Assembly: GCA_042218325.1 (NCBI GenBank)
Contig: JBDGRE010000030.1
Location: 1-39,569, forward strand
Direction of reading: 5' to 3'
Length of the DNA: 39,569 bases
Origin: Candidatus Nanohaloarchaea archaeon
GTDB lineage: Archaea; Nanohalarchaeota; Nanosalinia; Nanosalinales; Nanosalinaceae
A model generated the notes under the pieces. The model ran no database searches, was not told where the DNA came from, and worked only from the letters and a program-made list of their open reading frames with translations. This document shows, piece after piece, positions 306 to 13,171 of the stretch (within the stretch, counting starts at the first letter, position 1; the number at the start of each line of letters is the position of its first letter). The translations under genes were made by a program, and so were the position numbers.

Positions 306-461
306 CAGCTTTCCAACAGACGGCACCAACTTGAGCTTTAACATCTCGGGTCCACTCGCAAGAGTCGACCCGTTGAGAAGACCTCTGGTCTTCGACGAGC
401 AGCGTGCCCTCAGTGGATCACACAACGCGGCCGGACCTGCTTGCTATACGCTACACTTTCT

Positions 462-1091
462 CTACTCAATCACAATCTCTCTATCTGATTGAATAGGCAG
501 ACCATACGTTCTAACCCCATCTTCAGAACTTATCTCGAAACGATATTTCCCGTCCAGAATCTTCAGAATATGGCCTTCATAAGCACCAAGTTTCTCTCCA
601 TTTCTGTAGATTTCAACTTCATCAACCGGCATTTTCGTGACAAAAACATCTCTCATCACAGGAATCTTCGATGCAAGAGGCCTAACTTTCTCGTAAATCT
701 GAACTATGTGAGGATTGAAAATAGATTCTATTATCTCCTCCCCAAAGCGTTCATCCTGTCTTTCGGAAGCGTTATCTAATATCCTAACCAGACTATGTAG
801 AACTTCGAAGTCTTCCGCAAGATACGCCTGAACTGCTATTTCTCTCGCATTTTCTTCTATGATTTCAGAAAGTTCTTCGTCGTCTGCCTGTTTGACCTCT
901 TCTCTAAAACTATCCAAGAGCAGTATGAAAGGATCTTTTTCCCAAGAGCGATTAGACACAGAATACGTCTTACTACTCACAGAAAGGCTATATCCTACCG
1001 ACTTATGGCTATACCTCTCATCCTTCTTGTTCTTCAAGCGAGCCTTCTCAGTATTCAGCTCCTTAGTAAGGATATCGTGCCATCCAGCCAT
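462..1091 (-). CDS. hypothetical protein, A+T-rich; C-terminus resembles a PEGA-like beta domain
   Basis: 209-aa acidic ORF; C-terminal EVEIYRNGEKLG...GKYRFEIS pattern; composition differs from flanking genes. Confidence 0.6.
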   Translation of the reverse strand: MAGWHDILTKELNTEKARLKNKKDERYSHKSVGYSLSVSSKTYSVSNRSWEKDPFILLLDSFREEVKQADDEELSEIIEENAREIAVQAYLAEDFEVLHSLVRILDNASERQDERFGEEIIESIFNPHIVQIYEKVRPLASKIPVMRDVFVTKMPVDEVEIYRNGEKLGAYEGHILKILDGKYRFEISSEDGVRTYGLPIQSDREIVIE

Positions 1092-1145
1092 AAAATACAG
1101 TCTATGTATATCTTTTCCCGCAAAATCTAATCGAATATAGTTTAT

Positions 1146-1240
1146 CTAAACAAAACTAAACACCTCCACGCCTCAGCCGAACCCTCTTAGACGCTTTCTG
1201 AACGCCTTTGAACAGTCTTTCACGCGTTCGGGATATAAGG
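1146..1240 (+). promoter_or_regulatory. promoter with helically phased YYNAAC-like direct repeats and TATA box
   Basis: Hexamers at 1146, 1156, 1177, 1187, 1198, 1208, 1218; TATAAGG at 1234; same layout as 11879-11973. Confidence 0.75.
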
Positions 1241-1273
1241 CCCGGCGCGTATCCTGTGGCTGGTGAATCGACC

Positions 1274-1543
1274 ATGAAGAAAGCACTACTTGCGCTTGCT
1301 GCGATAGGGCTTGTGGCAGGAGCTGTAGCACTGCCCTCTCAGGCCGCCGACCAAGTGCCGGACATGGCTTCCCCGGGCGGCCAGGTGCAGATCGACTCTC
1401 CAGGTGAGAGTTCGGACGCGATGAACAGCGGTGCGCCCGCGGAGTTCCCGGGCGGGGCCGAGTTCTCGGGCCCTCCTTCGTTCGTGAAGGATCTGCTGCC
1501 GCAGCAGGCGGTGCAAAAAGTTCCGGGCTGGCTTTTCGGTTAG
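1274..1543 (+). CDS. small secreted protein with C-terminal amphipathic GPPSFV...LFG tail
   Basis: GGTGA SD at 1262, ATG 1274; signal peptide MKKALLALAAIGLVAGAVA. Confidence 0.8.
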   Translation: MKKALLALAAIGLVAGAVALPSQAADQVPDMASPGGQVQIDSPGESSDAMNSGAPAEFPGGAEFSGPPSFVKDLLPQQAVQKVPGWLFG

Positions 1544-1568
1544 CTCCCGATCAACTTCTTTTCTCTTT

Positions 1569-2390
1569 TTATCCAAGCTTCTTGACGGTTACAGGTACTT
1601 CTTCCGGTATCTCGGCGGTGTCTATATTGTAGTCGACGTGGACGCCGTAGAGGTCGATGTGCGGCGAGTTAGAGGCGCGGTCACGAACGTTTCTCTGGAC
1701 CGATGAGAGCAGCTTCTCCGCGTCATCGCGGGAAGTTTTGACCTCGAGGCCTATCACCTTGAAGTCCTCCACTTTCTCCAGCGGTATCCTGACGCGTTCC
1801 CGGTTTATCTCCGCCGAGCTCTTCGAGTGGTCTATGACATCGTACCGCATCTCCTCAGTCTCACCGTTCTTCTCCAGGGCGTAGAGGACCCGGTCTATCG
1901 TCGGTAGAAGGCTTTCCTGGAAACGTTCGAACATGTTTTTCCCGGCAGCGAAGTGGCGGCTCCGGACCTGCTTCAATATCTCTTCACGGTCCATGCCGTA
2001 GTGCGCGACCGAGTTCCCGCTTAGCTTCATCGAGTCTCGTGTATCCGGCTTTTCGCCGAGCCGCAGAGTGGCGGAGTCCGAGCTGTCTCTCAACCGGGCG
2101 TTCTCCCTCAGCTCCCATCCTCCCGGTAGCCTCGACTCGATGTAGCGCTTTATCCGTCCCTTAACGAATCTGGCGACCTTCTCGCCGAAGATACCCTGGA
2201 GCTTCCGTCTCTCAAGCTCCTGTATCTCGTACTCCAGCTCCAGGCCCTCGCTTTCCCGATCCTGGAAGTCGGTTAAACGGGTGAAGCCGTGCTCGCGAAG
2301 CTCCTGCTCCAGCTCCTCCTCGGATTTCTCCAGCTCGACTGCGAGCTTCCTGGGTGATACAAAGTAGGCCCTGTCAAGTATATCCGTCAC
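1569..2390 (-). CDS. PD-(D/E)xK nuclease-fold hypothetical protein
   Basis: GIFGE helix, PTID, IGLEVKTS and LSSVQR match the restriction-endonuclease-like motif order. Confidence 0.6.
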   Translation of the reverse strand: MTDILDRAYFVSPRKLAVELEKSEEELEQELREHGFTRLTDFQDRESEGLELEYEIQELERRKLQGIFGEKVARFVKGRIKRYIESRLPGGWELRENARLRDSSDSATLRLGEKPDTRDSMKLSGNSVAHYGMDREEILKQVRSRHFAAGKNMFERFQESLLPTIDRVLYALEKNGETEEMRYDVIDHSKSSAEINRERVRIPLEKVEDFKVIGLEVKTSRDDAEKLLSSVQRNVRDRASNSPHIDLYGVHVDYNIDTAEIPEEVPVTVKKLG

Positions 2391-2431
2391 ATCTTAAGCT
2401 TCTCTGGGCTAGTTATTATTGGTTCAGGTCG

Positions 2432-2453
2432 GGCATCCGGTTGTTCCGGTAGA
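2432..2453. promoter_or_regulatory. candidate operator GGCATCCGGTTGTTCCGGTAGA
   Basis: Intergenic between divergent genes; near-identical copy at 7396-7418. Confidence 0.6.
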
Positions 2454-2495
2454 TGAAGGGAAAAGGTTATTGACAGTGGAGGATAAGCTTCTTGC

Positions 2496-2987
2496 GTGAT
2501 AAGAGAGCACGCCCCCGTTCTGCTTATACCGGCAGCCTGGCTGGTCACCGCCCAATCGGTACTGGGCGGAGGCTCAGAGCTTGTGACCGGCATGCATATC
2601 TTCATGACGCTGTTCCTCGGGCTGTTTGTCGCAACGTCATGGAGGGAGATGGAGGTAGCTGTCCTCAACACATGGAGATGGGTGATAGCCGGAGGCTTCG
2701 TGCCGACGCTGCTCGCGACCTACGGGCTGATGGAGGGCGTCTCTTTCCTTCATGTACTCTCTCTTTCGTACTGGCTTCTCGTGCCGGGGCTGGCGATGTT
2801 CTCGAACGCGGAGGAGCTCGTGCAGGACTCGAAAAACTTCAGGAAGCTCGGGGTCTCCACCGTACCGGTGATGGGTCTTTACGGTATCGGGCTGACGGGT
2901 AACCGTGCGGCGCTGGCCGCGAGTATCTTCCTGGCGATGCTAACCCAGACATACGGTATAGCACTTGCGGCACGGATGGAGGGCTAA
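2496..2987 (+). CDS. multi-pass membrane protein, upstream of photolyase
   Basis: About six hydrophobic segments; stop is 1 nt before the photolyase ATG. Confidence 0.8.
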   Translation: MIREHAPVLLIPAAWLVTAQSVLGGGSELVTGMHIFMTLFLGLFVATSWREMEVAVLNTWRWVIAGGFVPTLLATYGLMEGVSFLHVLSLSYWLLVPGLAMFSNAEELVQDSKNFRKLGVSTVPVMGLYGIGLTGNRAALAASIFLAMLTQTYGIALAARMEG

Positions 2988-2988
2988 G

Positions 2989-4341
2989 ATGAGGATATTC
3001 CTACATATGGATGACCTCCGGGTCCACGACAACGCGGGGCTTTCAGAGGCGGGAAGCGGCGATGAGGTGCTGCCGGTCCACGTCAGGGATCCCCGGATAG
3101 TTGAGAGGCAGGGTGAGAAGAAGAGAAAGTTCAGGGAGGGCGCCCTGGAAAGACTGAGGCAGGAGTACCACGAAAGGGACGGTTCCCTGCTTCTCAGGGA
3201 TGGCAGGACCGCCGACATGGTGGAGCACGTAGCCCAGGCCTTCGACGCGGAAGCCGTCTACTACAACAGGAGCTACAGCCCGCTCAAGATGGAGATAGAG
3301 AGGGAGCTCGAGGAGCTGGAGCTCGAGAGCCGCTCGTTCAAGGACCGTCTGCTGGTCGAGCCCAGAGAGCTTGAGACGGAGTACTCAACTTTCTCACAGT
3401 TCTACTCCGACTGGAAGCAGGTCGGGAAGAGGGCGCCCTTCCACGGACCGGAACAGGTGGCGGACGTCGAGGAGGAGAACCAAGCTGAGGGACTCGAGGC
3501 GGACGAGCTGCCCGAGCCCGGAGAGGAAGCGGCGCTGGAGCGGTGGGAGTCCTTCCGCGATGAAAGGCTCGAGAGGTACAAATACGACAGAGACGACGTG
3601 AGCGACCCCGAGGCGGTATCCCGCCTCTCACCTTACTACAGCTCCGGTCTGCTTGGGCTAAGGACCGTGCTGTCCGATATCGAGGAGATGATACGTCGGG
3701 AGGATGATTCGGGAAAGATACGCAACTACGCAAAGTACCGCAGCGAGCTGGCCTGGAGGGAGTTCTTCTACCAAGTGCTTTACCACAACCCGGAGTCGGT
3801 CACCGAGAACTACAAGGATTTCGAGAACGGTATAGACTGGAGGAACGATCCTGAAGAGCTCGAGGCCTGGAAGGAGGGCAGGACCGGGGTGCCGTTCGTC
3901 GACGCAGGTATCAGGGAGCTTCTCGAGACCGGTTACATGCATAACAGGCTCCGCCAGAACGTGGCCTCGTTCCTTACCAAGCACCTGATGATTGACTGGC
4001 GGGAGGGCGCCAGCTTCTTCAGGAAGCACCTGGTCGACCATGACACCGCCTCCAACACAGGCGGGTGGCAGTGGTCTGCATCGACCGGGACCGACTCGGT
4101 ACCTGTCAGGATATTCAACCCTGTCAAGCAGGGCCGCAAGTACGATGAGAACTCGGATTACATCAGGAGATGGATACCGGAGCTCCGCGACCTCGACCCC
4201 GAGGAGATACACAGATGGGTAGAGATGGGCGAGGAGGAGAGAAGCCGTCTGGAGACGGACTACCCTTCTCCCATCGTCGACTTCGATGCGAGGTACCACG
4301 AGGGGAAGAAGATGTTCGAGCGGGCGCTCGGTAAGAGATAG
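2989..4341 (+). CDS. phr: deoxyribodipyrimidine (CPD class I) photolyase
   Basis: DLRVHDNAGL N-terminus; SRLSPY; ELAWREFF; GRTGVPFVDAGIRELLETGYMHNRLR; NTGGWQWSASTG FAD-binding motifs. Confidence 0.96.
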   Translation: MRIFLHMDDLRVHDNAGLSEAGSGDEVLPVHVRDPRIVERQGEKKRKFREGALERLRQEYHERDGSLLLRDGRTADMVEHVAQAFDAEAVYYNRSYSPLKMEIERELEELELESRSFKDRLLVEPRELETEYSTFSQFYSDWKQVGKRAPFHGPEQVADVEEENQAEGLEADELPEPGEEAALERWESFRDERLERYKYDRDDVSDPEAVSRLSPYYSSGLLGLRTVLSDIEEMIRREDDSGKIRNYAKYRSELAWREFFYQVLYHNPESVTENYKDFENGIDWRNDPEELEAWKEGRTGVPFVDAGIRELLETGYMHNRLRQNVASFLTKHLMIDWREGASFFRKHLVDHDTASNTGGWQWSASTGTDSVPVRIFNPVKQGRKYDENSDYIRRWIPELRDLDPEEIHRWVEMGEEERSRLETDYPSPIVDFDARYHEGKKMFERALGKR

Positions 4342-4343
4342 CT

Positions 4344-6437
4344 CTAGAGGTAGGAGTGTATGGTTTTCCTGCTGGTTTTCTTCAGCTCCCTTCTCACGTC
4401 TTCACGGTCCATGCCGAGCGGGGAGAGCACGCTCTCCGCCGCCCTGACGAGCTGCGTCCTGTAGAACCCGGTGTCGTATCTTGCGGTGTTTTCGAAGGCG
4501 AGCCTCACTCGGGCTCTCGGCGGCGCGTTGTCGTTCCTGACCACGTACCTGACGCGCTGGCCCGGCTTTATCTCTATGCCGTGCTGCCTGGCGCGCTTCA
4601 TCGCCGCGACCGTCCTGTTGGAGACCTGGTAGTCCTCCAGCGCCTTCGAGGCCTTCTTCTCCACCACGAGCCGGTCCGGGTCGACTTCCCCCGACTCCAG
4701 CCTGTCAACCTTCTCACGCAGCACATCCAAGACGTCCTCCTCGCTCATCTCCCGGTCGAGAGCCTCTATCATCTCCATCTGGGAGTCCTTCACGAAGCCC
4801 GGGCTTGAGCTCTGCTCCACCTCTATCCCTGCGGTCTTGAAACCTCCTGACTTCTTCTTGCCAAAATACCGGTTGAGCGTCGCGATGTCCGCATCCGAGG
4901 ATGAACGGGGAACGAAGGCGACCCATTCGAACTCGTGCTCGGGCTCCAGCTCTATGCCTATCTCTTGGGTTATATGCTCGCAAACCTTCTCAAAGTTTTC
5001 CGCATCCCGCTTCTTTTGGACCCAGATGGAGTCAATTATGCCGTGCGCGATGCTGTATCCGGCGTCCTCGAACATCTCCTTCGTTTCAACCATTATCTCT
5101 CGGTCGAACGCTTGGATGGCCTGGTGGCACTCTATCGCGCCGTAGCTGGCGTGGCAGTGGCCCATATAGCCGAAGCACGAGACCAGCAGCCACTTGATCG
5201 CGTCGACGCTGCCCTGCAGGTCCCTCCTCTCTTTCTCGTCCAGTTCCTCCCCGGCGAGTCTCTTCTTCATCCGCTGCCTGTCCTCGACCAGGGGTTCAAG
5301 GACGCGCGGGATAAAACCCTCCTCGTCGCATATCGAGTAGTCGAGCTCCGGCACCCTGTCGTTGTCGCAGCAGCCGCAGTTTACCGTCTCCGGGCTTATG
5401 TTCTTCTTGACCATTATGTTCGGGAAAAGCGAGGCGAAGTCGGCCTCGTAGACGTTCTCGTGGATGGAAGGCTCCGGGTTGAAGATGAAGCCGCCCCTGT
5501 CCGCGCGGTGCATCGTTGATGCCTTCTTCGGCTGCTCGCCGCTCCAGTTCTTCCACGGGGTAAGCGTTTTCTCCTCCAGGTATGCGCGCCGGACCTCGAT
5601 GCTGGTCAAAAGGCGGCCGATGCTGCCCCAGGCAAGCTCCTGCATCGGGCGGTAGCTTCTCTCGACGAGGTCCCAGAAGCCTTCCAGCGTCGCCTCACCT
5701 ATCAGGAAGCTGTTCGACCTGTCGATGACGACGCGGCCGGGGACGTTGTAGCGGGAGGCGGAGTGGACTGTCTTCCCGTAGCTATGGACCGTGTTCTCGC
5801 CCGCGACCTGCTCGAAGCTTCCCGCCCGGCCGAGCGAGCCAAGCCCCTGCTCGTTCATCCTTGTCTCCAGCAGCTCGAGGACCTGGCCGCGGTTGACCAT
5901 CAGGAGGTCCGGGTCCCTCCGCTCAAAGACGCGGTGGAACTTTTCGACCGCCTCACCCTCGGAGCCTTCCATCTCTTCACCGTCGACCTTCAGGCCCGAG
6001 AGCTCGCCAGACGCGATATACTTCCTGTGGAGCGTTATATCCATCCTGTCGAGTTCGAACTCGGGGACCGGGCAGGTCTCGCGCTGTAGGCAGAACCTGA
6101 ACTGCGGGCTGAAGCCGACGTTGTAGAACCTGAACTCGCTCCTGCCGAAGCTCTTCTTCAGCCTGTTGACAGCAGACCTCAGCGCGTCCTCCGAAAAGGT
6201 GTCGACCCTGAGGACCTTCTTCTCCGGCTTCGAGAGCGTCGGCTTCCAGGTCTCGAAGCAGGTCGAATCGACTCCATCCAGGCGGCTGAGCCACGGTCTT
6301 CCTCTATGCAGTGATGTCCTGTCGCCCTCGATGTAGAAACGCGGCCGGTAGCCCGGGTGCCTCTCGGCCTCGACCCTGTTCCTGGTCTTCGTCCAGGTGA
6401 CCGCGTCACCGTCGACGAAGTCAATCTTGAATACCAT
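4344..6437 (-). CDS. polB2: archaeal family B DNA polymerase, PolB2 group
   Basis: Motif A DFASLFP, motif B KWLLVSCFGY, degenerate motif C HGIIDS (vs YGDTDS), degenerate exonuclease region. Confidence 0.92.
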   Translation of the reverse strand: MVFKIDFVDGDAVTWTKTRNRVEAERHPGYRPRFYIEGDRTSLHRGRPWLSRLDGVDSTCFETWKPTLSKPEKKVLRVDTFSEDALRSAVNRLKKSFGRSEFRFYNVGFSPQFRFCLQRETCPVPEFELDRMDITLHRKYIASGELSGLKVDGEEMEGSEGEAVEKFHRVFERRDPDLLMVNRGQVLELLETRMNEQGLGSLGRAGSFEQVAGENTVHSYGKTVHSASRYNVPGRVVIDRSNSFLIGEATLEGFWDLVERSYRPMQELAWGSIGRLLTSIEVRRAYLEEKTLTPWKNWSGEQPKKASTMHRADRGGFIFNPEPSIHENVYEADFASLFPNIMVKKNISPETVNCGCCDNDRVPELDYSICDEEGFIPRVLEPLVEDRQRMKKRLAGEELDEKERRDLQGSVDAIKWLLVSCFGYMGHCHASYGAIECHQAIQAFDREIMVETKEMFEDAGYSIAHGIIDSIWVQKKRDAENFEKVCEHITQEIGIELEPEHEFEWVAFVPRSSSDADIATLNRYFGKKKSGGFKTAGIEVEQSSSPGFVKDSQMEMIEALDREMSEEDVLDVLREKVDRLESGEVDPDRLVVEKKASKALEDYQVSNRTVAAMKRARQHGIEIKPGQRVRYVVRNDNAPPRARVRLAFENTARYDTGFYRTQLVRAAESVLSPLGMDREDVRRELKKTSRKTIHSYL

Positions 6438-6708
6438 CCTCGAGCTCTTGGATGCGTTTCTCCAGCTCCGTGATTTTCTCTGCGTTCTCCGAACTCTCCT
6501 TCTGGAGGCCGAGAAGCATCGAGATTATCGCGGGTATACCCGGGCTGGACGAGTTCATGTAGGAGGCGGCGTGGGCGTAGCTGTGGGCTTTCTCCCAGAG
6601 ACCGTCAAGATGTTCCTGGTTGGTATCCCGCAGCGCCTTCCGGAAAGGTCTGAAGCTCTCGATGAAGCTGTCCAGGTGGTTCCGGTAGGTTGAGTTCGTC
6701 CGTCCCAT
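6421..6708 (-). CDS. small helical PolB2-associated protein (arCOG07300-like)
   Basis: MGRTNSTYR...FRKALR N-terminus; overlaps polB2 start. Confidence 0.85.
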   Translation of the reverse strand: MGRTNSTYRNHLDSFIESFRPFRKALRDTNQEHLDGLWEKAHSYAHAASYMNSSSPGIPAIISMLLGLQKESSENAEKITELEKRIQELEDGIQD

Positions 6709-7352
6709 CAGTAGGTCGCGACCGTCTCGACTTCCCTGGTTTTGCTGCTCCAGTAAGGTAGTGTAGTCTGGAAGCTGCCCGGGCTGCGATAGAAGAGCTG
6801 CTGGTGTTCCTTCGACTCGTACCTGACTCCTTCCGGTGTCCTCTCGACATCTATCCGGTTGGATGCGTCCCTCCTGACCCGGTAGCAGAGCAGGCTGTCT
6901 CCCGGGACCGAGACCAGTACCTTGAGGTCGAACTTCTTCTGCAGTCTTACGACCTCGTCCCAGGCCTCCAAGAACAGCTCCTCGGCCTCCCAGTCGCTTA
7001 CTTGGCCGTCGAGGTAGAGATGGCTGAACTGGGGAAGTGCCAGGAACTTCACGTCTTGGTCAATCCAGTCCTCGAGACCGGTCACCAGGCTGTGGTGCTG
7101 GAACGGCGTGAAAGCACGGCCTATCCTGACCCTATCGAGCACCTCGGCCCCTGATGCGGAGGCGAGCGCGTAGGTCGAGGACTGGTTCCGTGTATCTATC
7201 CAGACCGCCTCGCCCCTGGAGGACCCGAGTTCCGACGCGAGCAGCTCCTGGAAGACAGGACGCTTCTCCGGCTTCTCGACCAGGTTGACGCCCTCCTCGA
7301 CCTCGGGACTTGAATGCTTCACGACCTTCCCGGCTTCAGCAGTTTCTCGCAT
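6708..7352 (-). CDS. inactivated RadA/RecA-like P-loop protein of the PolB2 cassette
   Basis: AVWIDTRN and RIGRAFTPFQHHSL motifs; no intact Walker A; likely ATG at 7352. Confidence 0.8.
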   Translation of the reverse strand: MRETAEAGKVVKHSSPEVEEGVNLVEKPEKRPVFQELLASELGSSRGEAVWIDTRNQSSTYALASASGAEVLDRVRIGRAFTPFQHHSLVTGLEDWIDQDVKFLALPQFSHLYLDGQVSDWEAEELFLEAWDEVVRLQKKFDLKVLVSVPGDSLLCYRVRRDASNRIDVERTPEGVRYESKEHQQLFYRSPGSFQTTLPYWSSKTREVETVATY

Positions 7353-7395
7353 CCTGGACAAGAGATATCCATAACTGTTAAAGTGGGTAGCTCGT

Positions 7396-7418
7396 GGCAT
7401 TCCGGCTGTTCCGGTAAA
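7396..7418. promoter_or_regulatory. candidate operator GGCATTCCGGCTGTTCCGGTAAA
   Basis: Intergenic between the divergent PolB2 cassette and epimerase; matches 2432-2453. Confidence 0.6.
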
Positions 7419-7455
7419 GAGTAGAGTTAAACCGGTGGAAGCAAAAGATGGAGGC

Positions 7456-8247
7456 ATGAAGGTGCTGGTCGCGGGTAAGGGCTTTATCGGAGAGGCCGTA
7501 GGAGAAAAACTGGAGGGAAGACACGAAGTGAAGTACCTCGACAGGGGTGGCGCTGATCACGAATACGATATCACAGAGGAGTTCTCGATAGACGAGGAGT
7601 TCGAAGTGCTGATCCACACCATAGGACTGGCGCCCGGCTTCAGTTCAGCGGAGGAGTACCGGGAGGTTCATGTCGAGGGAACCCGGAACCTCTTGGAGGC
7701 GGTAGACGCAGAGAGAGCGGTCTACATGAGCGCGCTGAAGGCGGGAGAGGTCGACCACAGCTTCTTCCGGACGAAGAGGGAGGCAGAAGAGATACTGGAG
7801 GGATCAAGCATGGAACACGCGATAATCCGTCCATCGACCGTTTACGGAAGGGGCAACAGGCTGCTCGACATGATGCGGAGGCTCGCGCCCTCGAAGATAT
7901 TCCCGGATATAAAGACCCGGACGCAGCCGATACTGCTGGGGGACCTGGTGGAGATGACAGTCAGGCTGATCGAGGAAGAGGAGAATGGCATATTCAGGGC
8001 GGCGGGACCCGAAAAGATGACAGTCGGCGAGCTCGCAAGGCATGTCTACGCGGAGGAGGGCTACAGCTGCCTGCTTGTTCCCGGCGCCCAGCTCTCGATG
8101 GAGTACTCCCTGGCGTTTCTGAGCTTCCTTCCACCGCCTTTCGAGGACGAGAACATAAAGTTGATGAGGCACGATAACACGACGGATGAGAACGATGCGG
8201 AGAGATTCGTGGACCTCAGATCGATAGATGGCAGGAGGAAAGCTTGA
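7456..8247 (+). CDS. NAD(P)-dependent epimerase/dehydratase (atypical SDR, NDUFA9-like)
   Basis: MKVLVAGKGFIG Rossmann motif, HVEGTRNLL, FRTKREAE, IRPSTVYG; GGAGG SD. Confidence 0.9.
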   Translation: MKVLVAGKGFIGEAVGEKLEGRHEVKYLDRGGADHEYDITEEFSIDEEFEVLIHTIGLAPGFSSAEEYREVHVEGTRNLLEAVDAERAVYMSALKAGEVDHSFFRTKREAEEILEGSSMEHAIIRPSTVYGRGNRLLDMMRRLAPSKIFPDIKTRTQPILLGDLVEMTVRLIEEEENGIFRAAGPEKMTVGELARHVYAEEGYSCLLVPGAQLSMEYSLAFLSFLPPPFEDENIKLMRHDNTTDENDAERFVDLRSIDGRRKA

Positions 8248-8271
8248 ATAGTGGCGGCGTGAACTTATCAT

Positions 8272-8478
8272 ATGGAGCAGAACCTGTCGGAAAGAGAAAG
8301 GAAGATAAGACTGGCCGCCGGCATCCTGGTGCTGGCAGCGACCGGAGCCCTCTACCACCAAGGCGCGAGCGCGGGAGTTTTAGCGGCCCTCGCCCTGCTG
8401 GGTGCCGGACTTGTTGCCAACTACTTCACCTGCTTCTGCGGAACCAAGAAGCTGGTGAAGAGCATGACCGGTGACTAG
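8272..8478 (+). CDS. DUF2892/YgaP-like small membrane protein
   Basis: MEQNLSERERKIRL, two TM helices, FC motif. Confidence 0.8.
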   Translation: MEQNLSERERKIRLAAGILVLAATGALYHQGASAGVLAALALLGAGLVANYFTCFCGTKKLVKSMTGD

Positions 8479-9110
8479 CTCTCCCGGTCGTCGAGAAGCT
8501 CCAGGAACTCGCGGGCCGCCTCCGAGCTGGAATCAGGCCCCCTGGCCGTGACCAGGTTCCCGTCCCGGACGACTGAAGTATCCTGCGAGAGGTTAGAGCG
8601 CCATACCGCTCCCGCGGACTTCACGATGGCCTCGACCCTGTAAGGCAGCTTCCTGCCTTCCCTGACCTCATCACCATCGACCTGGTCGGTCTCCCACTCA
8701 TCGGGGAAGCCTGTCACCTCCCTGCCATCCACGAGCTCGGGCAGGAAGCCGAGGACTCCCACGGCGTGACAGATGACGAGAGCTCCCGCATCATCGACCT
8801 TCGATACCAGGAGCTCCTGGACGTGCCTGTCCTGGTTTATATCCCAGAGCGTTCCGTGGCCGCCCGGAAGCACCAGGGCGTCGTACTCGTCCTGGTCGCG
8901 GTAGGCCTCCATCAGCGAGGAGGGATCCTGCAGATGCCCGCTGTCCTCGATGAACTCCCTGTAACCCTCCACCGAAGCAGCATCCGGCTCAGGCCTAGAG
9001 CCGGTAGGGGTCGCCAGCTCCACTTCGTGTCTTTCCGATATCATTTTGAGAGGCTCGATACACTCCTCAGCCCAGTAGCCCTGCTCGGTCAACACGAAAA
9101 GTACTTTCAT
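8475..9110 (-). CDS. DJ-1/PfpI (class I glutamine amidotransferase-like) protein
   Basis: GYWAEE, PGGHG, ICHA nucleophile elbow, DGNLVTARGP. Confidence 0.93.
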   Translation of the reverse strand: MKVLFVLTEQGYWAEECIEPLKMISERHEVELATPTGSRPEPDAASVEGYREFIEDSGHLQDPSSLMEAYRDQDEYDALVLPGGHGTLWDINQDRHVQELLVSKVDDAGALVICHAVGVLGFLPELVDGREVTGFPDEWETDQVDGDEVREGRKLPYRVEAIVKSAGAVWRSNLSQDTSVVRDGNLVTARGPDSSSEAAREFLELLDDRES

Positions 9111-9163
9111 GGAGTTTATAACCGGGATAAGGCTTTTAGGGTTTTACGCAGCACCGTTCCGAA

Positions 9164-9797
9164 GTGATAGTAATAGACGGCTGCAGGGGAGGATGTATAG
9201 CCGCAAACCATACCGGTGATAGCTGGGAGGTATGGAGGACGGGATCACTGGACGAGCTCGAGTTCGATAAAGCGATCATAGACGTGCCGGTAGCCATATC
9301 GGATGAGGGAACGAGGAGATGCGACAGGGGGGGCCCGGAGTTTCCTTTCACCGGAAAGACACGGTTCTGTCTTCAACTGTCCTGTCAGGAAGGCGGTCTA
9401 AGCCGACAGCTACGAGGAAGCCTGCGATATCAACGAAAGTATCTCAGGTAAGAGGATATCACGCCAGTCTTGGGACATAGTTCCCGAGATAAGAGAGGTG
9501 AGAAGGTGCGACGGCCTCGAGATGAGGGAGGGTCACCCGGAAGTCTTCTTCAAAGCTATCGCCCCCGAGTTAGTGAAGCAGTCGGAGAGAACCGCGAAAG
9601 GTAAGGAACTAAGGAAGAAGGTGCTTTCCAGGTTCGGGGAACTACCGGATCTGGAGCAGCTGCCCGGCTCGACAGATGACAAGCCTGATGAGATGGTGCT
9701 TTCTCTCGGCGTAGAGCTAGAGCTGGAGACCCTTCCCGAGTCCGCCGAAGAGAACATCAAGGGCGAGAAGATGAGGATACTCAGGCCTCGACCGTAG
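9164..9797 (+). pseudogene. DUF429 (RNase H-like predicted nuclease) pseudogene
   Basis: IDGCRGG, IDVP, RRCD then a +1 shift in the G7 run 9327-9333 continues ARSFLS..SVFNCPVRKAV, in-frame TAA 9399-9401, then SRQSW..EGHPEVFF. Confidence 0.8.
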
Positions 9798-9838
9798 ACC
9801 ACCGAAACTGGTAAAGCCCGCGACGAGAAGAACTTTTT

Positions 9839-10264
9839 ATGGTAGATTATCCTGTAGATTTCCGGACATCATCTGGAGCAAGAGCATCAGAAAAAACATG
9901 GAGCAGCAAGGTATCCGGAGAGTCAATCAAGGTCTCAGCTCCCGAAGAGTTCGGGGGAGAGAAGCAGTCGGCCTCACCCGAGGAGCTGTACACTGCATCG
10001 CTGGAGAACTGTCTGCTCGCAACTTTCAAGCAGATAGCCGAGAGGAAGGGGCTCGAGTACGAGGAGATAAGCTCAGAGGCGGTGGCGGAGCTCGCAAGGA
10101 ACGAGGATTCTCGACCGGTGATGAAGAAGGTGAGGATAGAGATAGAGGTTGAAGGCATAGAAGACGAGGATCAAGCTTCCAGGGTAAAGAAGGCCGCTAT
10201 CAGGAACTGCTTCATACACAGGTCGGTCAAGACGGAAGTGGATCAGGAATTCCGGTGGCTCTAG
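9839..10264 (+). CDS. OsmC/Ohr family protein
   Basis: PEEFGG, SPEELYTASLENC, CFIHRSV two-Cys signature. Confidence 0.92.
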   Translation: MVDYPVDFRTSSGARASEKTWSSKVSGESIKVSAPEEFGGEKQSASPEELYTASLENCLLATFKQIAERKGLEYEEISSEAVAELARNEDSRPVMKKVRIEIEVEGIEDEDQASRVKKAAIRNCFIHRSVKTEVDQEFRWL

Positions 10265-10501
10265 ATGGACTGGGAAAGGCTGGAAGGAAGGTTCGAGGAG
10301 CACTTCGGCACCACAGGAGATGAAGAGGACGAACTGGTCTACAGCTCCGCTTCATCCCGGTTCAGTATCTCCCGCTCCGGGAAGGTCGAGGCCGAGATGC
10401 CTCTTCACAACTTCAGCGCGGAAAGCTTCGAGCAGATAGAGTTCCTTGATAACCGGATAGAAGTCAGGTCCGGCGACACTTTCTACGAGTTCAGGAAATA
10501 G
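10265..10501 (+). CDS. small acidic hypothetical protein
   Basis: Starts immediately after the OsmC stop; acidic composition. Confidence 0.7.
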   Translation: MDWERLEGRFEEHFGTTGDEEDELVYSSASSRFSISRSGKVEAEMPLHNFSAESFEQIEFLDNRIEVRSGDTFYEFRK

Positions 10502-10560
10502 AATAGTTTGAACCGGGCACCTGCTTCTTAAGCATCGCTCCAGCATTCGTGGATACAGCC

Positions 10561-11094
10561 ATGAGACGACTACTGATAGCATTCGCTGTCGCCGCGTTCG
10601 TGGCGGCGGGAGCTGCACAGCCTTCGGGTGCCGGGCCTAACATGGCCGGTGGTCCTGACTCTGCCCGACAGGGTCAGGTGACTACCATGGGCAACCAGTC
10701 CGGGAACCAGACAGGCAACGAGACCCGCGGAAACGTTTCCCGTGGTCCCGGCCGTAGCGCGCAGTTTGATGCTAGGCTTATGACCGCTATCAACACGGTT
10801 GACGCGCTGACAAAAATCGCTCCGAACGACGACGTTGAGCAGCGACTCGAGAGAGCTCTGGAGATCCTGCGCAACGTGAAGGAGGACACTGATACGGCCA
10901 GCCTCGGACCTGATAACGAGACAAGTGATGAAGACACCGGAGAAAGAGGGCCGCCCGCTGACAGAGGTCCTGGACAGCAGGGGCCTCCTGAAGACGCAGG
11001 TTCTTCCGGCCAGCAGGGACCACAGAACCGTGGACGCCAGGGCGGCGGACCACCTGGATTCGTCCGGCGCATGCTCGGCGGCCTGTTCGGCTAG
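10561..11094 (+). CDS. secreted Gly/Pro/Gln-rich protein with C-terminal GPPGFV...LFG tail
   Basis: Signal peptide MRRLLIAFAVAAFVAAGAAQP; GPP/GPQ repeats. Confidence 0.82.
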   Translation: MRRLLIAFAVAAFVAAGAAQPSGAGPNMAGGPDSARQGQVTTMGNQSGNQTGNETRGNVSRGPGRSAQFDARLMTAINTVDALTKIAPNDDVEQRLERALEILRNVKEDTDTASLGPDNETSDEDTGERGPPADRGPGQQGPPEDAGSSGQQGPQNRGRQGGGPPGFVRRMLGGLFG

Positions 11095-12897: not shown

Positions 12898-13103
12898 ATG
12901 GAGGAAGTCGAGTTCCGGTGTACTAACTGCGGCAGGACCGTCGAGAGAGATATCCTTCCCACCAAGCATGCCATACTTGAACCTTGCCGGATATCAACCG
13001 GACGGCCGCCTGCTGCAGCAAACCCGATTACGAGGACGATGAGGGGTTCCGCCGCTCAAGGCAGGAGGTCTCCTTCCGGGACTTCATACCCGGGAGAGCC
13101 TGA
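12898..13103 (+). pseudogene. small zinc-finger protein, apparently frameshifted
   Basis: MEEVEFRCTNCG; after about 12985 another frame gives PDINRTAACCSKPDYEDDEGF..GRA* (TGA 13101-13103), supplying the second Cys pair. Confidence 0.5.
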
Positions 13104-13171
13104 AACCCTCCTCTCCGTTCCCCCTCCTTGAACGAGTTTAAAACGATAAGATGGACAAAAGGATGATAGAT

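Follow-up and report, generated by a model that had tools for sequence, protein, structure and literature searches.

A tandem CGGAA promoter element ahead of the PolB2 operon of a nanohaloarchaeon: a candidate DNA-damage-response element for an Orc1/Cdc6 paralogue

Introduction

Outside the Sulfolobales, it is still an open question how archaea regulate the DNA-damage response, and a contig from a nanohaloarchaeon raises it in a concrete form. In this stretch of 39,569 nucleotides (contig C24 of genome G000, here called the window), two near-identical strings stand in the same orientation on the plus strand, GGCATCCGGTTGTTCCGGTAGA at 2432-2453 and GGCATTCCGGCTGTTCCGGTAAA at 7396-7418. One lies near a photolyase gene and the other near a gene cassette for the DNA polymerase PolB2. 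An earlier note on this DNA, which placed both strings correctly, read them as a candidate CCGG-N5-CCGG operator for an unknown regulator responding to ultraviolet (UV) light or DNA damage. Which genes do the two sites serve, where else does the element occur, and what might bind it? We approached these questions with the source genome (1.07 Mb in 35 contigs, 55% GC, 96% complete, about 90% coding) and a comparison set of 40 relatives (labelled G001 and so on); the named relatives of the genome are Nanohaloarchaea.

Results

Both sites lie in short divergent spacers. Site 1 stands in the 105 bp (2391-2495) between a gene for a 273-aa protein (GTG at 2390, minus strand) and a membrane-protein gene (GTG at 2496, plus strand). 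Site 2 stands in the 103 bp (7353-7455) between the gene for an inactivated RadA-like protein, iRadA (ATG at 7352, minus strand), and a gene resembling short-chain dehydrogenase/reductase (SDR) epimerases (ATG at 7456, plus strand); the bounds were set after trimming over-long open reading frame (ORF) calls. Measured from the motif centres, the four start codons lie 52, 53, 55 and 49 nt away, which agrees approximately with the 47-59 nt given earlier. The 1.07-Mb genome has three copies of the exact 13-mer CCGGYTGTTCCGG, each in a divergent intergenic region; arithmetic from base composition predicts about 0.1 copies on both strands. As a control, the same pattern read backward has no match in the genome. 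The third copy (C16:44960-44972) is flanked by a small membrane-protein gene and by a DUF763 gene (Pfam, 6e-126), and points at the latter. When up to two mismatches are allowed, the window holds nine matches, seven of them inexact, against a mean of 1.77 in 100 shuffles.

Read on the opposite strand, the motif resolves into a direct repeat in tandem, TACCGGAAC-NN-CCGGAA, whose period is 9 bp. Reverse-complementing a part of this CGGAA repeat yields CCGG-N5-CCGG: a real motif, seen only in part. In most iRadA upstream regions of the relatives (17 loci in 16 of the 40), a CGGAA-N4-CGGAA direct repeat stands on the gene strand shortly 5′ of a TTTAAA- or TTAAAA-type box. Gibbs sampling of these 17 regions, with relatives only, gave the consensus ATACCGGAACTGGCGGAA. 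A separate run on 10 DUF763 upstream regions, again with relatives only, gave ATACCGGAACTAGCGGAA, and in 7 of the 10 the site was at -72 or -73 from the start of the Pfam match. The consensus in relatives reads TACCGGAAC-NN-(C)CGGAA, with (C)CGGAA(C) as the repeat unit. Each matrix recognized the sites of the other: at a score of at least 12, the DUF763-trained matrix matched the iRadA regions in 11 of 17 cases forward and 1 of 17 in reverse, and the iRadA-trained matrix matched 8 of 10 DUF763 regions forward and 0 of 10 in reverse.

The element occupies roughly -43 to -63 from the gene start, just 5′ of the region of the transcription factor B recognition element (BRE) and the TATA box. From the spacing of site, TATA box and start, the target genes are therefore mostly leaderless. 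Placement upstream of the BRE and TATA box suggests activation and not operator-type repression. Orientation relative to the target is conserved throughout, with rare matches on the reverse strand. Since both orientation and spacing are conserved, the direction of sites 1 and 2 is settled: judged from sequence, site 2 is predicted to serve the iRadA-PPB2-PolB2 operon and site 1 the 273-aa gene, whose start is 43 nt downstream of the site, with neither serving the photolyase or SDR gene. An operator role for these last genes is not supported: the element is orientation specific and points away from both the SDR gene, which is probably not a target, and the membrane-protein and photolyase genes, which probably form one operon.

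We then scanned all contigs of the source genome with a matrix built from 23 sites of relatives and none from G000. The two top scores, 23.1 and 22.5, lie 56 nt apart upstream of a gene for an Orc1/Cdc6 paralogue (C5:29426-30442). They are followed by sites ahead of genes for a 69-aa zinc-ribbon protein (22.4), DUF763 (22.0), iRadA (21.0) and DinB (20.2), the last a Y-family polymerase (Pfam IMS, 6e-36). Because many high scores were runs of Glu codons within genes, we imposed an architecture filter: a score of at least 12, a TATA-like box 8-25 nt past the site, and then an ORF start. Eight sites in the genome pass it; their boxes lie between +12 and +16 and their ORF starts between +37 and +48, +43 being the start in five cases. 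Ten column-shuffled matrices yielded zero to two passing sites each. The genes behind the eight sites are those for the Orc paralogue, the zinc-ribbon protein, DUF763, iRadA, DinB, the 273-aa protein and an XPD-like helicase, together with a 58-aa ORF downstream of the Orc gene.

For conservation in relatives, we counted scores of at least 13 in four sets that had no part in training the matrix, the upstream regions of the Orc paralogue, DinB, zinc-ribbon and XPD genes. Orthologues of the Orc paralogue carry the element forward in 14 of 29 cases and in reverse in 3 of 29, and in seven close relatives it stands at -61. The counts are 8 forward and 0 reverse for 23 DinB regions, and 11 forward and 1 reverse for 22 zinc-ribbon regions; the XPD orthologues, a negative control, gave 0 of 27 in either direction. 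The small gene beside the Orc paralogue, encoding about 55 aa, has a site of at least 12.6 in 6 of 10 close relatives, followed by a TTTATAAA box and a start at +43 or +44. Exact matches to the 13-mer number nine, in eight of the 40 relatives. The one in G010, about 90 nt 5′ of iRadA, is the only match that is both orthologous and intergenic; we took the others, which look coding, to be chance. Variant repeats, CGACAC/CGGACAC, occur in G002 and G013. In G017, the gene just upstream of iRadA resembles SDR and is codirectional with iRadA, and the element there still points at iRadA. By these sequence comparisons, the conserved core comprises the Orc paralogue with its small neighbouring ORF, the genes for the zinc-ribbon protein, DinB and DUF763, and the operon iRadA-PPB2-PolB2.

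The photolyase side gave a different result. None of four photolyase orthologue loci has a promoter site scoring at least 11, and some 25 loci of the paralogue type contain 11 matches of at least 13, none standing right ahead of the photolyase gene. For the 273-aa gene, the full-length orthologues in G007 and G013 have no site of at least 11, nor do two fragments in G021. Because the orthologues of both the 273-aa gene and the photolyase gene are without a site, site 1 belongs to this genome only; site 2, ahead of iRadA, is conserved. The earlier note was thus right to see a regulatory site and not chance, since the element is conserved in relatives. The element links genes of DNA-damage tolerance, namely the PolB2 cassette and, outside the window, those for DinB, DUF763 and the Orc1/Cdc6 paralogue; conservation lends no support to a link with the photolyase or with light. 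The genome-wide scan turned up sites before DinB, DUF763 and the Orc paralogue, and a site before XPD that is not conserved.

What could bind the element? The gene with the highest scores encodes a 338-aa member of the Orc1/Cdc6 family (TIGR02928, 227 bits against a cut-off of 181; Cdc6_lid, 5.6e-14), with a Walker A motif, GPPGTGKS, and a Walker B motif, ILDEVD, in its translation. It is one of two Orc1/Cdc6 genes in the genome, is 32% identical to the other, the 411-aa Orc1 on contig C15, and is present in 36 of the 40 relatives. The 411-aa orc1 gene adjoins a 520-bp noncoding region (C15:20147-20670; locus L116:2647-3170) with inverted dyads resembling origin recognition boxes (ORBs), TCCAnTCGAAAT...GGGGG, and an AT-rich palindrome. 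This region looks like oriC, and we infer that the 338-aa paralogue is a non-initiator.

The promoter of the Orc paralogue (C5:30443-30560; locus L112) carries two tandem pairs of the element. Past its TATA box, the GTG start is overlapped by an inverted pair, AGCGGAA-N8/9-TTCCGTGAG, which is conserved, beside the tandem pair, in close relatives (L046-L055). Such a multisite promoter is the layout expected of an autoregulated factor, and the inverted pair over the start may mediate autorepression. The gene is also linked to the PolB2 operon. It lies directly upstream of iRadA in G014, G021, G002 (as a second copy) and G013 (as a fragment), and is unlinked, on C5, in G000. We surveyed 80 named loci found with an iRadA alignment, 61 from Halobacteria and 19 from Nanohaloarchaea. 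A homologue of the Orc paralogue lies within 1.5 kb of iRadA in 29 of them (24 in Halobacteria and 5 in Nanohaloarchaea), upstream and on the same strand in all but one. Identity in the best tblastn segment is 27-54%, and at least 38% in all but three of the 29. Enrichment of orc1/cdc6 genes beside PolB2 operons is described in parts of two published accounts (PMC4104785, PMC11791011). The earlier note had proposed a regulator and left it unnamed; the Orc1/Cdc6 paralogue is now a concrete candidate.

The element extends into Halobacteria. Gibbs sampling on 61 haloarchaeal iRadA upstream regions alone gave TTTCGGAACTTCCGGAAACGACCC. In these regions GGAA-N5-GGAA occurs forward in 28 of 61 and in reverse in 2 of 61, and other spacings of GGAA occur 0-4 times each, except N8 with 12. 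Among 16 linked Orc genes with enough upstream DNA, haloarchaeal or nanohaloarchaeal, the same pattern stands upstream of 8 in the forward and 0 in the reverse direction, and a further TTCCG often abuts a TATA-like box in these promoters. Haladaptatus, Natrinema and Halorarius are among the haloarchaea with the CGGAA element. Across five Halobacteria genomes TCGGAA-N5-GGAA has 101 occurrences, against 10 for a backward control. We viewed 30 of the 101 contexts, and 7 were promoter-like by eye: three ahead of orc genes, two ahead of iRadA, one ahead of a gene resembling a trypsin-like protease, and one with a PadR-like gene far downstream. We claim no haloarchaeal regulon from these genome-wide counts.

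A second class of repeat, CACTTTCACTTTCAC, was seen upstream of iRadA in 7 of the 61 Halobacteria, Haloferax included, with seven forward and no reverse matches (loci L189, L201, L207, L210, L213, L221 and L240). It contains two tandem hexamers that fit the Sulfolobus ANTTTC. At locus L188, CACTTTCACTTTCAC precedes the linked orc gene and a CGGAA tandem precedes iRadA.

Several observations concern individual genes from the scan. DinB (C32:33799-34674; locus L110) is 291 aa long in an open frame of 298 aa, compared with frames of 347-390 aa in most relatives, and its little-finger domain is barely detected (IMS_C, 0.011); the protein may be truncated at its C terminus. The ~55-aa protein, 58 aa here (C5:29187-29363; locus L112:288-464, minus strand), is encoded directly downstream of the Orc paralogue, follows the pattern M..RYE.HL.YLPK.EREAL... 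and matched no known family. The zinc-ribbon gene (C32:14677-14898) belongs to a family present in 16 of 24 genomes of the same family (f1) and only there, and its promoter, a site followed by TTTATAAA, is very well conserved. Weaker zinc-ribbon paralogues exist in the genome, one of them at window positions 12898-13131, where the match is broken by a TGA. In family searches, neither the zinc-ribbon nor the ~55-aa protein matched a recognized DNA-binding family. Two other candidate members fail the architecture filter and were rejected, an SRAP gene (site score 16.2) and a free-standing gene with helix-turn-helix (HTH) and LAGLIDADG parts (C12:30767-31615; locus L115), where a site of 17.9 is followed by TTTTTAGG.

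The features of the window that bear on the two sites are collected in Table 1.

Table 1. Coordinates of the two elements, their TATA-like boxes and the neighbouring genes in the window.
Feature	Coordinates	Strand	Remarks
Site 1, tandem CGGAA element	2434..2451	-	Reads TACCGGAACAACCGGATG; second unit imperfect; relatives-only matrix score 15.2; passes promoter-architecture filter
TATA-like box AATAATAA	2413..2420	-	13 nt downstream of site 1
Site 2, tandem CGGAA element	7399..7416	-	Reads TACCGGAACAGCCGGAAT; relatives-only matrix score 21.0
TATA-like box TTTAACAG	7375..7382	-	16 nt downstream of site 2
273-aa gene	1569..2390	-	N-terminal HTH-like part; C-terminal domain weakly resembling PD-(D/E)xK nucleases
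Membrane-protein gene, 163 aa	2496..2987	+	Far side of site 1; overlaps photolyase gene; no family match
Photolyase gene	2965..4341	+	Pfam FAD_binding_7, 8e-77; DNA_photolyase, 9e-26
PolB2, last operon gene	4344..6437	-	Pfam DNA_pol_B, 2.6e-23; NCBIfam NF004418, 706.9 bits against a cut-off of 692
PPB2 (arCOG07300), 95 aa	6421..6708	-	Begins MGRT
iRadA (inactivated RadA-like), first operon gene	6708..7352	-	In-frame TTG at 7361 is an alternative start
SDR epimerase-like gene	7456..8247	+	Far side of site 2; Pfam Epimerase, 8e-7

Site 1 has the lower score of the two because its second unit is CGGAT. The three genes behind site 2 are adjacent and codirectional, which fits a PolB2 mutasome operon; this gene order and the MGRT motif at the N terminus of PPB2 are described in the portion of PMC11791011 that deals with them. 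A profile of 18 iRadA orthologues matches RadA structures at an E value of 1.3e-9, and no GKT Walker A is visible in the iRadA translation. In the PolB2 translation, the region of polymerase motif C reads HGIIDS.

The 273-aa protein has no Pfam or NCBIfam match and four homologues in a large protein collection, its own record included. Its family, in six aligned sequences, has invariant E70, D209, E216-x-K218 and Q232. An AlphaFold2 model (predicted local distance difference test [pLDDT] score, 77.6) has no Foldseek match at an E value of 0.001 or below. VIA-align gives Z scores of at most 5.4 (root mean square deviation of 3.4 Å over 81 residues), below the reliable level, and nearly all of its rows are PD-(D/E)xK folds: Hjc, tRNA-splicing endonuclease, exonucleases and restriction enzymes. 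For residues 1-40, the resemblance is to HTH domains (VIA-align Z of about 4). The Atlas offered no usable feature match for this protein, and its model there is poor (pLDDT, 0.36). A PD-(D/E)xK-like nuclease is plausible but not established. The G007 orthologue of the 273-aa gene has a different photolyase paralogue about 660 nt away, divergent from it and on the other strand.

The photolyase of the window is one of three photolyase/cryptochrome-family genes in the genome, others being at C2:18390-19760 and C29:2439-3746. It is of the rarer type, with orthologues of at least 50% identity in only 4 of the 40 relatives. Further along, two adjacent short ORFs (9164-9451 and 9498-9797) match the N-terminal and central parts of DUF429, respectively, and look like a split or frameshifted gene. 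About 10 kb of the window (442-10757) has no match at the DNA level in G001, which is of the same genus, or in G005, and both flanks match at 72-92% identity. This stretch contains the 273-aa gene, the photolyase, the PolB2 cassette, the SDR, DJ-1/PfpI, DUF429 and OsmC genes, and both sites; it looks like a variable stress/repair island that carries sites 1 and 2.

Discussion

The comparisons above establish the element, how it is oriented, spaced and conserved, which genes it targets and that it is linked with the Orc gene. What does it do? We propose that it is a DNA-damage-response element, putatively induced by damage, whose candidate binder is the non-initiator Orc1/Cdc6 paralogue. The analogy is with Orc1-2 of Sulfolobus islandicus, which binds a DNA-damage-response element (DDRE; ANTTTC, within a 20-bp consensus) in promoters of DNA-damage-response genes, by the relevant parts of PMC6061795 and PMC9738581. 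As described there, promoter binding needs ATP binding, the initiator-specific motif and the winged helix; the sections of PMC6061795 on regulation add that Orc1-2 up-regulates its own gene and is required for induction of dpo2 (PolB2). We put the probability of our proposal at about 0.55, and the identity of the binder, activation as against repression, and induction by damage are its conditional parts.

Under this proposal, sites 1 and 2 would be copies of a promoter-proximal control element that marks a small DNA-damage-tolerance regulon. In this genome the regulon would consist of iRadA-PPB2-PolB2, the 273-aa gene, DUF763, DinB, the zinc-ribbon gene, the ~55-aa gene and, with the strongest and multiple sites, the Orc paralogue itself. 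By analogy, the paralogue would bind the tandem repeats head to tail; two AAA+ protomers in that arrangement would suit a direct repeat of about one helical turn. Once bound, it may activate the promoters after DNA damage by helping to recruit the TATA-binding protein and transcription factor B. It would also act on its own promoter, where the extra sites over the start could provide negative feedback.

A number of points weigh against this proposal. Site 1 is not conserved ahead of orthologues of the 273-aa gene. The XPD helicase is a doubtful member of the regulon: its site scores 15.1 in the right architecture, but none of 27 orthologues has one. Many high matrix scores fall in coding DNA (Glu-rich GAGGAAG runs), and raw score alone is unspecific. 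The matrix picks up only about half of the promoters of the Orc paralogue in relatives, and more distant ones carry variant or palindromic forms. The same-genus relative G001 keeps the Orc paralogue with its sites, and iRadA, DUF763 and DinB were not found there with the queries used. The repeat unit is GTTCCG (CGGAAC on the gene strand), not ANTTTC. The paralogue is nearer to structures of the Orc1-1 type (phmmer: 2qby_A, 1.8e-27; 2v1u, 3e-27) than to Aeropyrum pernix ORC2 (1w5s, 8e-15), and its closer score to Orc1-1 types means that orthology to Orc1-2 is not implied. Both induction by damage and binding by the Orc paralogue in this organism are putative, and the true binder could be the zinc-ribbon protein, the ~55-aa protein or another factor.

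This last alternative, in which a winged HTH, zinc-ribbon or ~55-aa protein binds the same element and runs the same repair regulon, with the Orc paralogue merely among the targets, is in our judgement unlikely, while deserving real weight. The Orc paralogue and every other candidate alike are putative binders, and among the best-conserved sites are some of those ahead of the zinc-ribbon and ~55-aa genes. There is also the halovirus SNJ2, where, as told in parts of PMC10123103, a small protein beside the Orc1 gene is the effector of a damage switch. Yet autoregulatory multisite promoters are typical of a regulator's own gene, and it is the Orc gene that is linked to iRadA in 29 of 80 loci, across two phylum-level groups. 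Experimental precedent exists for Orc1-2, whereas the two small proteins belong to no recognized DNA-binding family, and the zinc-ribbon gene is found only in family f1 while the element reaches Halobacteria. Alternatively, the Orc paralogue might bind the repeats as part of a program that follows replication or the cell cycle, for example in fork restart or alternative initiation, instead of damage. Makarova et al. (2014) proposed, in the passages of PMC4104785 concerned, a role in replication or its regulation for PolB2-iRadA-arCOG07300 and the linked Orc, and the paralogue does resemble the initiator-type Orc1-1 more than ORC2. We think this distinctly unlikely: the targets are translesion polymerases (the PolB2 complex and DinB), each site is a single element near a promoter, unlike an ORB cluster with its AT-rich unwinding region, and the origin-like ORB repeats of this genome differ from them in sequence.

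The two remaining explanations concern the sites themselves. A UV or light operator acting both ways, and so also on the membrane-protein/photolyase operon and the SDR gene, has some features in its favor: the far-side starts, that of the membrane-protein gene at +44 and that of the SDR gene at +39, are at distances similar to those on the near side, site 1 has a TATA-like TTATTG about 16 nt away on its membrane-protein side, and a factor bound between back-to-back promoters could affect both. Such symmetric spacing is, however, expected where divergent spacers measure 100 bp and about 90% of a 1-Mb genome is coding. The orientation of the element is conserved and reverse-strand matches are rare, no site precedes the four photolyase orthologues or directly precedes the roughly 25 genes of the paralogue type, and in G017 the SDR-like gene runs in the same direction as iRadA. 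No match to the B12-binding domain of CarH/LitR-type light regulators (PF02607) appeared in the 96%-complete genome, in a search that covered the B12-binding type only. We regard a two-way operator as very unlikely. Least credible of all is a chance resemblance, or a functionless remnant of local duplication, to which we give almost no weight. Sites 1 and 2 are near-identical over 22 nt and both lie in the ~10-kb stretch unmatched in the two closest genomes, as a duplication might leave them; against this stand three exact copies where about 0.1 are expected, conservation at orthologous places across an order and into Halobacteria, and a fixed spacing to TATA box and start codon. The separate Gibbs runs, the cross-validation, the architecture filter and the counts for the Orc paralogue already contradict it.

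A damage-response element bound by the Orc paralogue would have wider consequences. We tentatively suggest, with the odds leaning somewhat against us, that Halobacteria and Nanohaloarchaeota might share an SOS-like network in which the PolB2-linked Orc1/Cdc6 protein binds tandem CGGAA, regulates itself and activates the PolB2 mutasome, DinB, DUF763 and the small proteins. If true, it would give the first example of a cellular damage regulon and its cis-element beyond the Sulfolobales, and it would assign DUF763, the 69-aa zinc-ribbon protein and the ~55-aa protein to DNA-damage biology; as matters stand, these three are flagged as likely damage-response factors. The long-noted orc1/cdc6 neighbourhood of PolB2 operons would be explained. 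The cis-element, target list and candidate regulator are conserved from symbiotic nanohaloarchaea to Halobacteria, which are cultivable and in part genetically tractable. We found no account of the element, or of an Orc-centered cellular damage regulon in halophiles, in a literature search that did not cover subscription journals.

Comparison with known systems

How does the proposed regulon compare with systems already described? Like LexA/SOS, it would be a regulon of translesion polymerases with an autoregulated regulator gene, and some bacterial PolB2 operons carry lexA, according to a part of PMC4104785. The element consists of direct repeats placed 5′ of the TATA box, whereas the SOS box is a palindrome overlapping the promoter. 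The genome shows no LexA: its sole Peptidase_S24 match (24.4 bits) is a 177-aa membrane-anchored protein with SCSMYP and no HTH, and by its sequence it looks like a signal peptidase. ORB elements at origins are likewise short and repeated, have a CGAAA-like core and are recognized by Orc1/Cdc6 proteins. In this genome, the ORB-like repeats form dyads with a G-string in a 520-bp noncoding region, whereas the window sites are single 18-nt tandem pairs in ordinary promoters, in spacers of 103-105 bp.

In the pleolipovirus SNJ2, the Orf8 (Orc1/Cdc6)-Orf7 pair offers another parallel from a halophile: an Orc1/Cdc6 homologue responds to damage and switches on an adjacent small gene, and the text consulted presents this viral Orc1 as the first euryarchaeal case (PMC10123103). 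A gene of about 55 aa with its own site likewise stands beside the Orc paralogue here, a likeness by position. The SNJ2 switch differs in being viral and in controlling lysogeny, as set out in parts of the same paper, which define no binding site. The PolB2 mutasome operon is matched closely in its genes, as far as the sections of PMC4104785 and PMC11791011 on it describe: the order iRadA-PPB2-PolB2, a 95-aa MGRT PPB2, a RadA-like protein without Walker A, and linked orc1/cdc6 in relatives. The Orc gene is unlinked in this genome, on contig C5. In those sections, the published accounts cover the genes and what surrounds them, with no mention of a promoter element (PMC4104785, PMC11791011).

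The closest counterpart is the Sulfolobales Orc1-2/DDRE system. In both, a second Orc1/Cdc6 stands beside an initiator, and both the PolB2 genes and the orc gene itself have a short asymmetric element a little 5′ of the core promoter. At this level of promoter architecture, the likeness to the damage-inducible PolB2 of Sulfolobus that the earlier note pointed out is borne out. The 20-bp DDRE consensus of S. islandicus contains GTTTCRG (PMC6061795, in the part on the motif), and the unit here reads GTTCCGG on the same strand, which is a resemblance only. Unlike the DDRE, the unit here is duplicated in tandem with a 9-bp period, and the regulon here includes DinB, DUF763 and small proteins; DinB is not induced in S. 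islandicus in the results given in part of PMC6061795. The proposed logic is that of the Sulfolobus Orc1-2/DDRE system, while motif architecture, lineage and part of the regulon differ.

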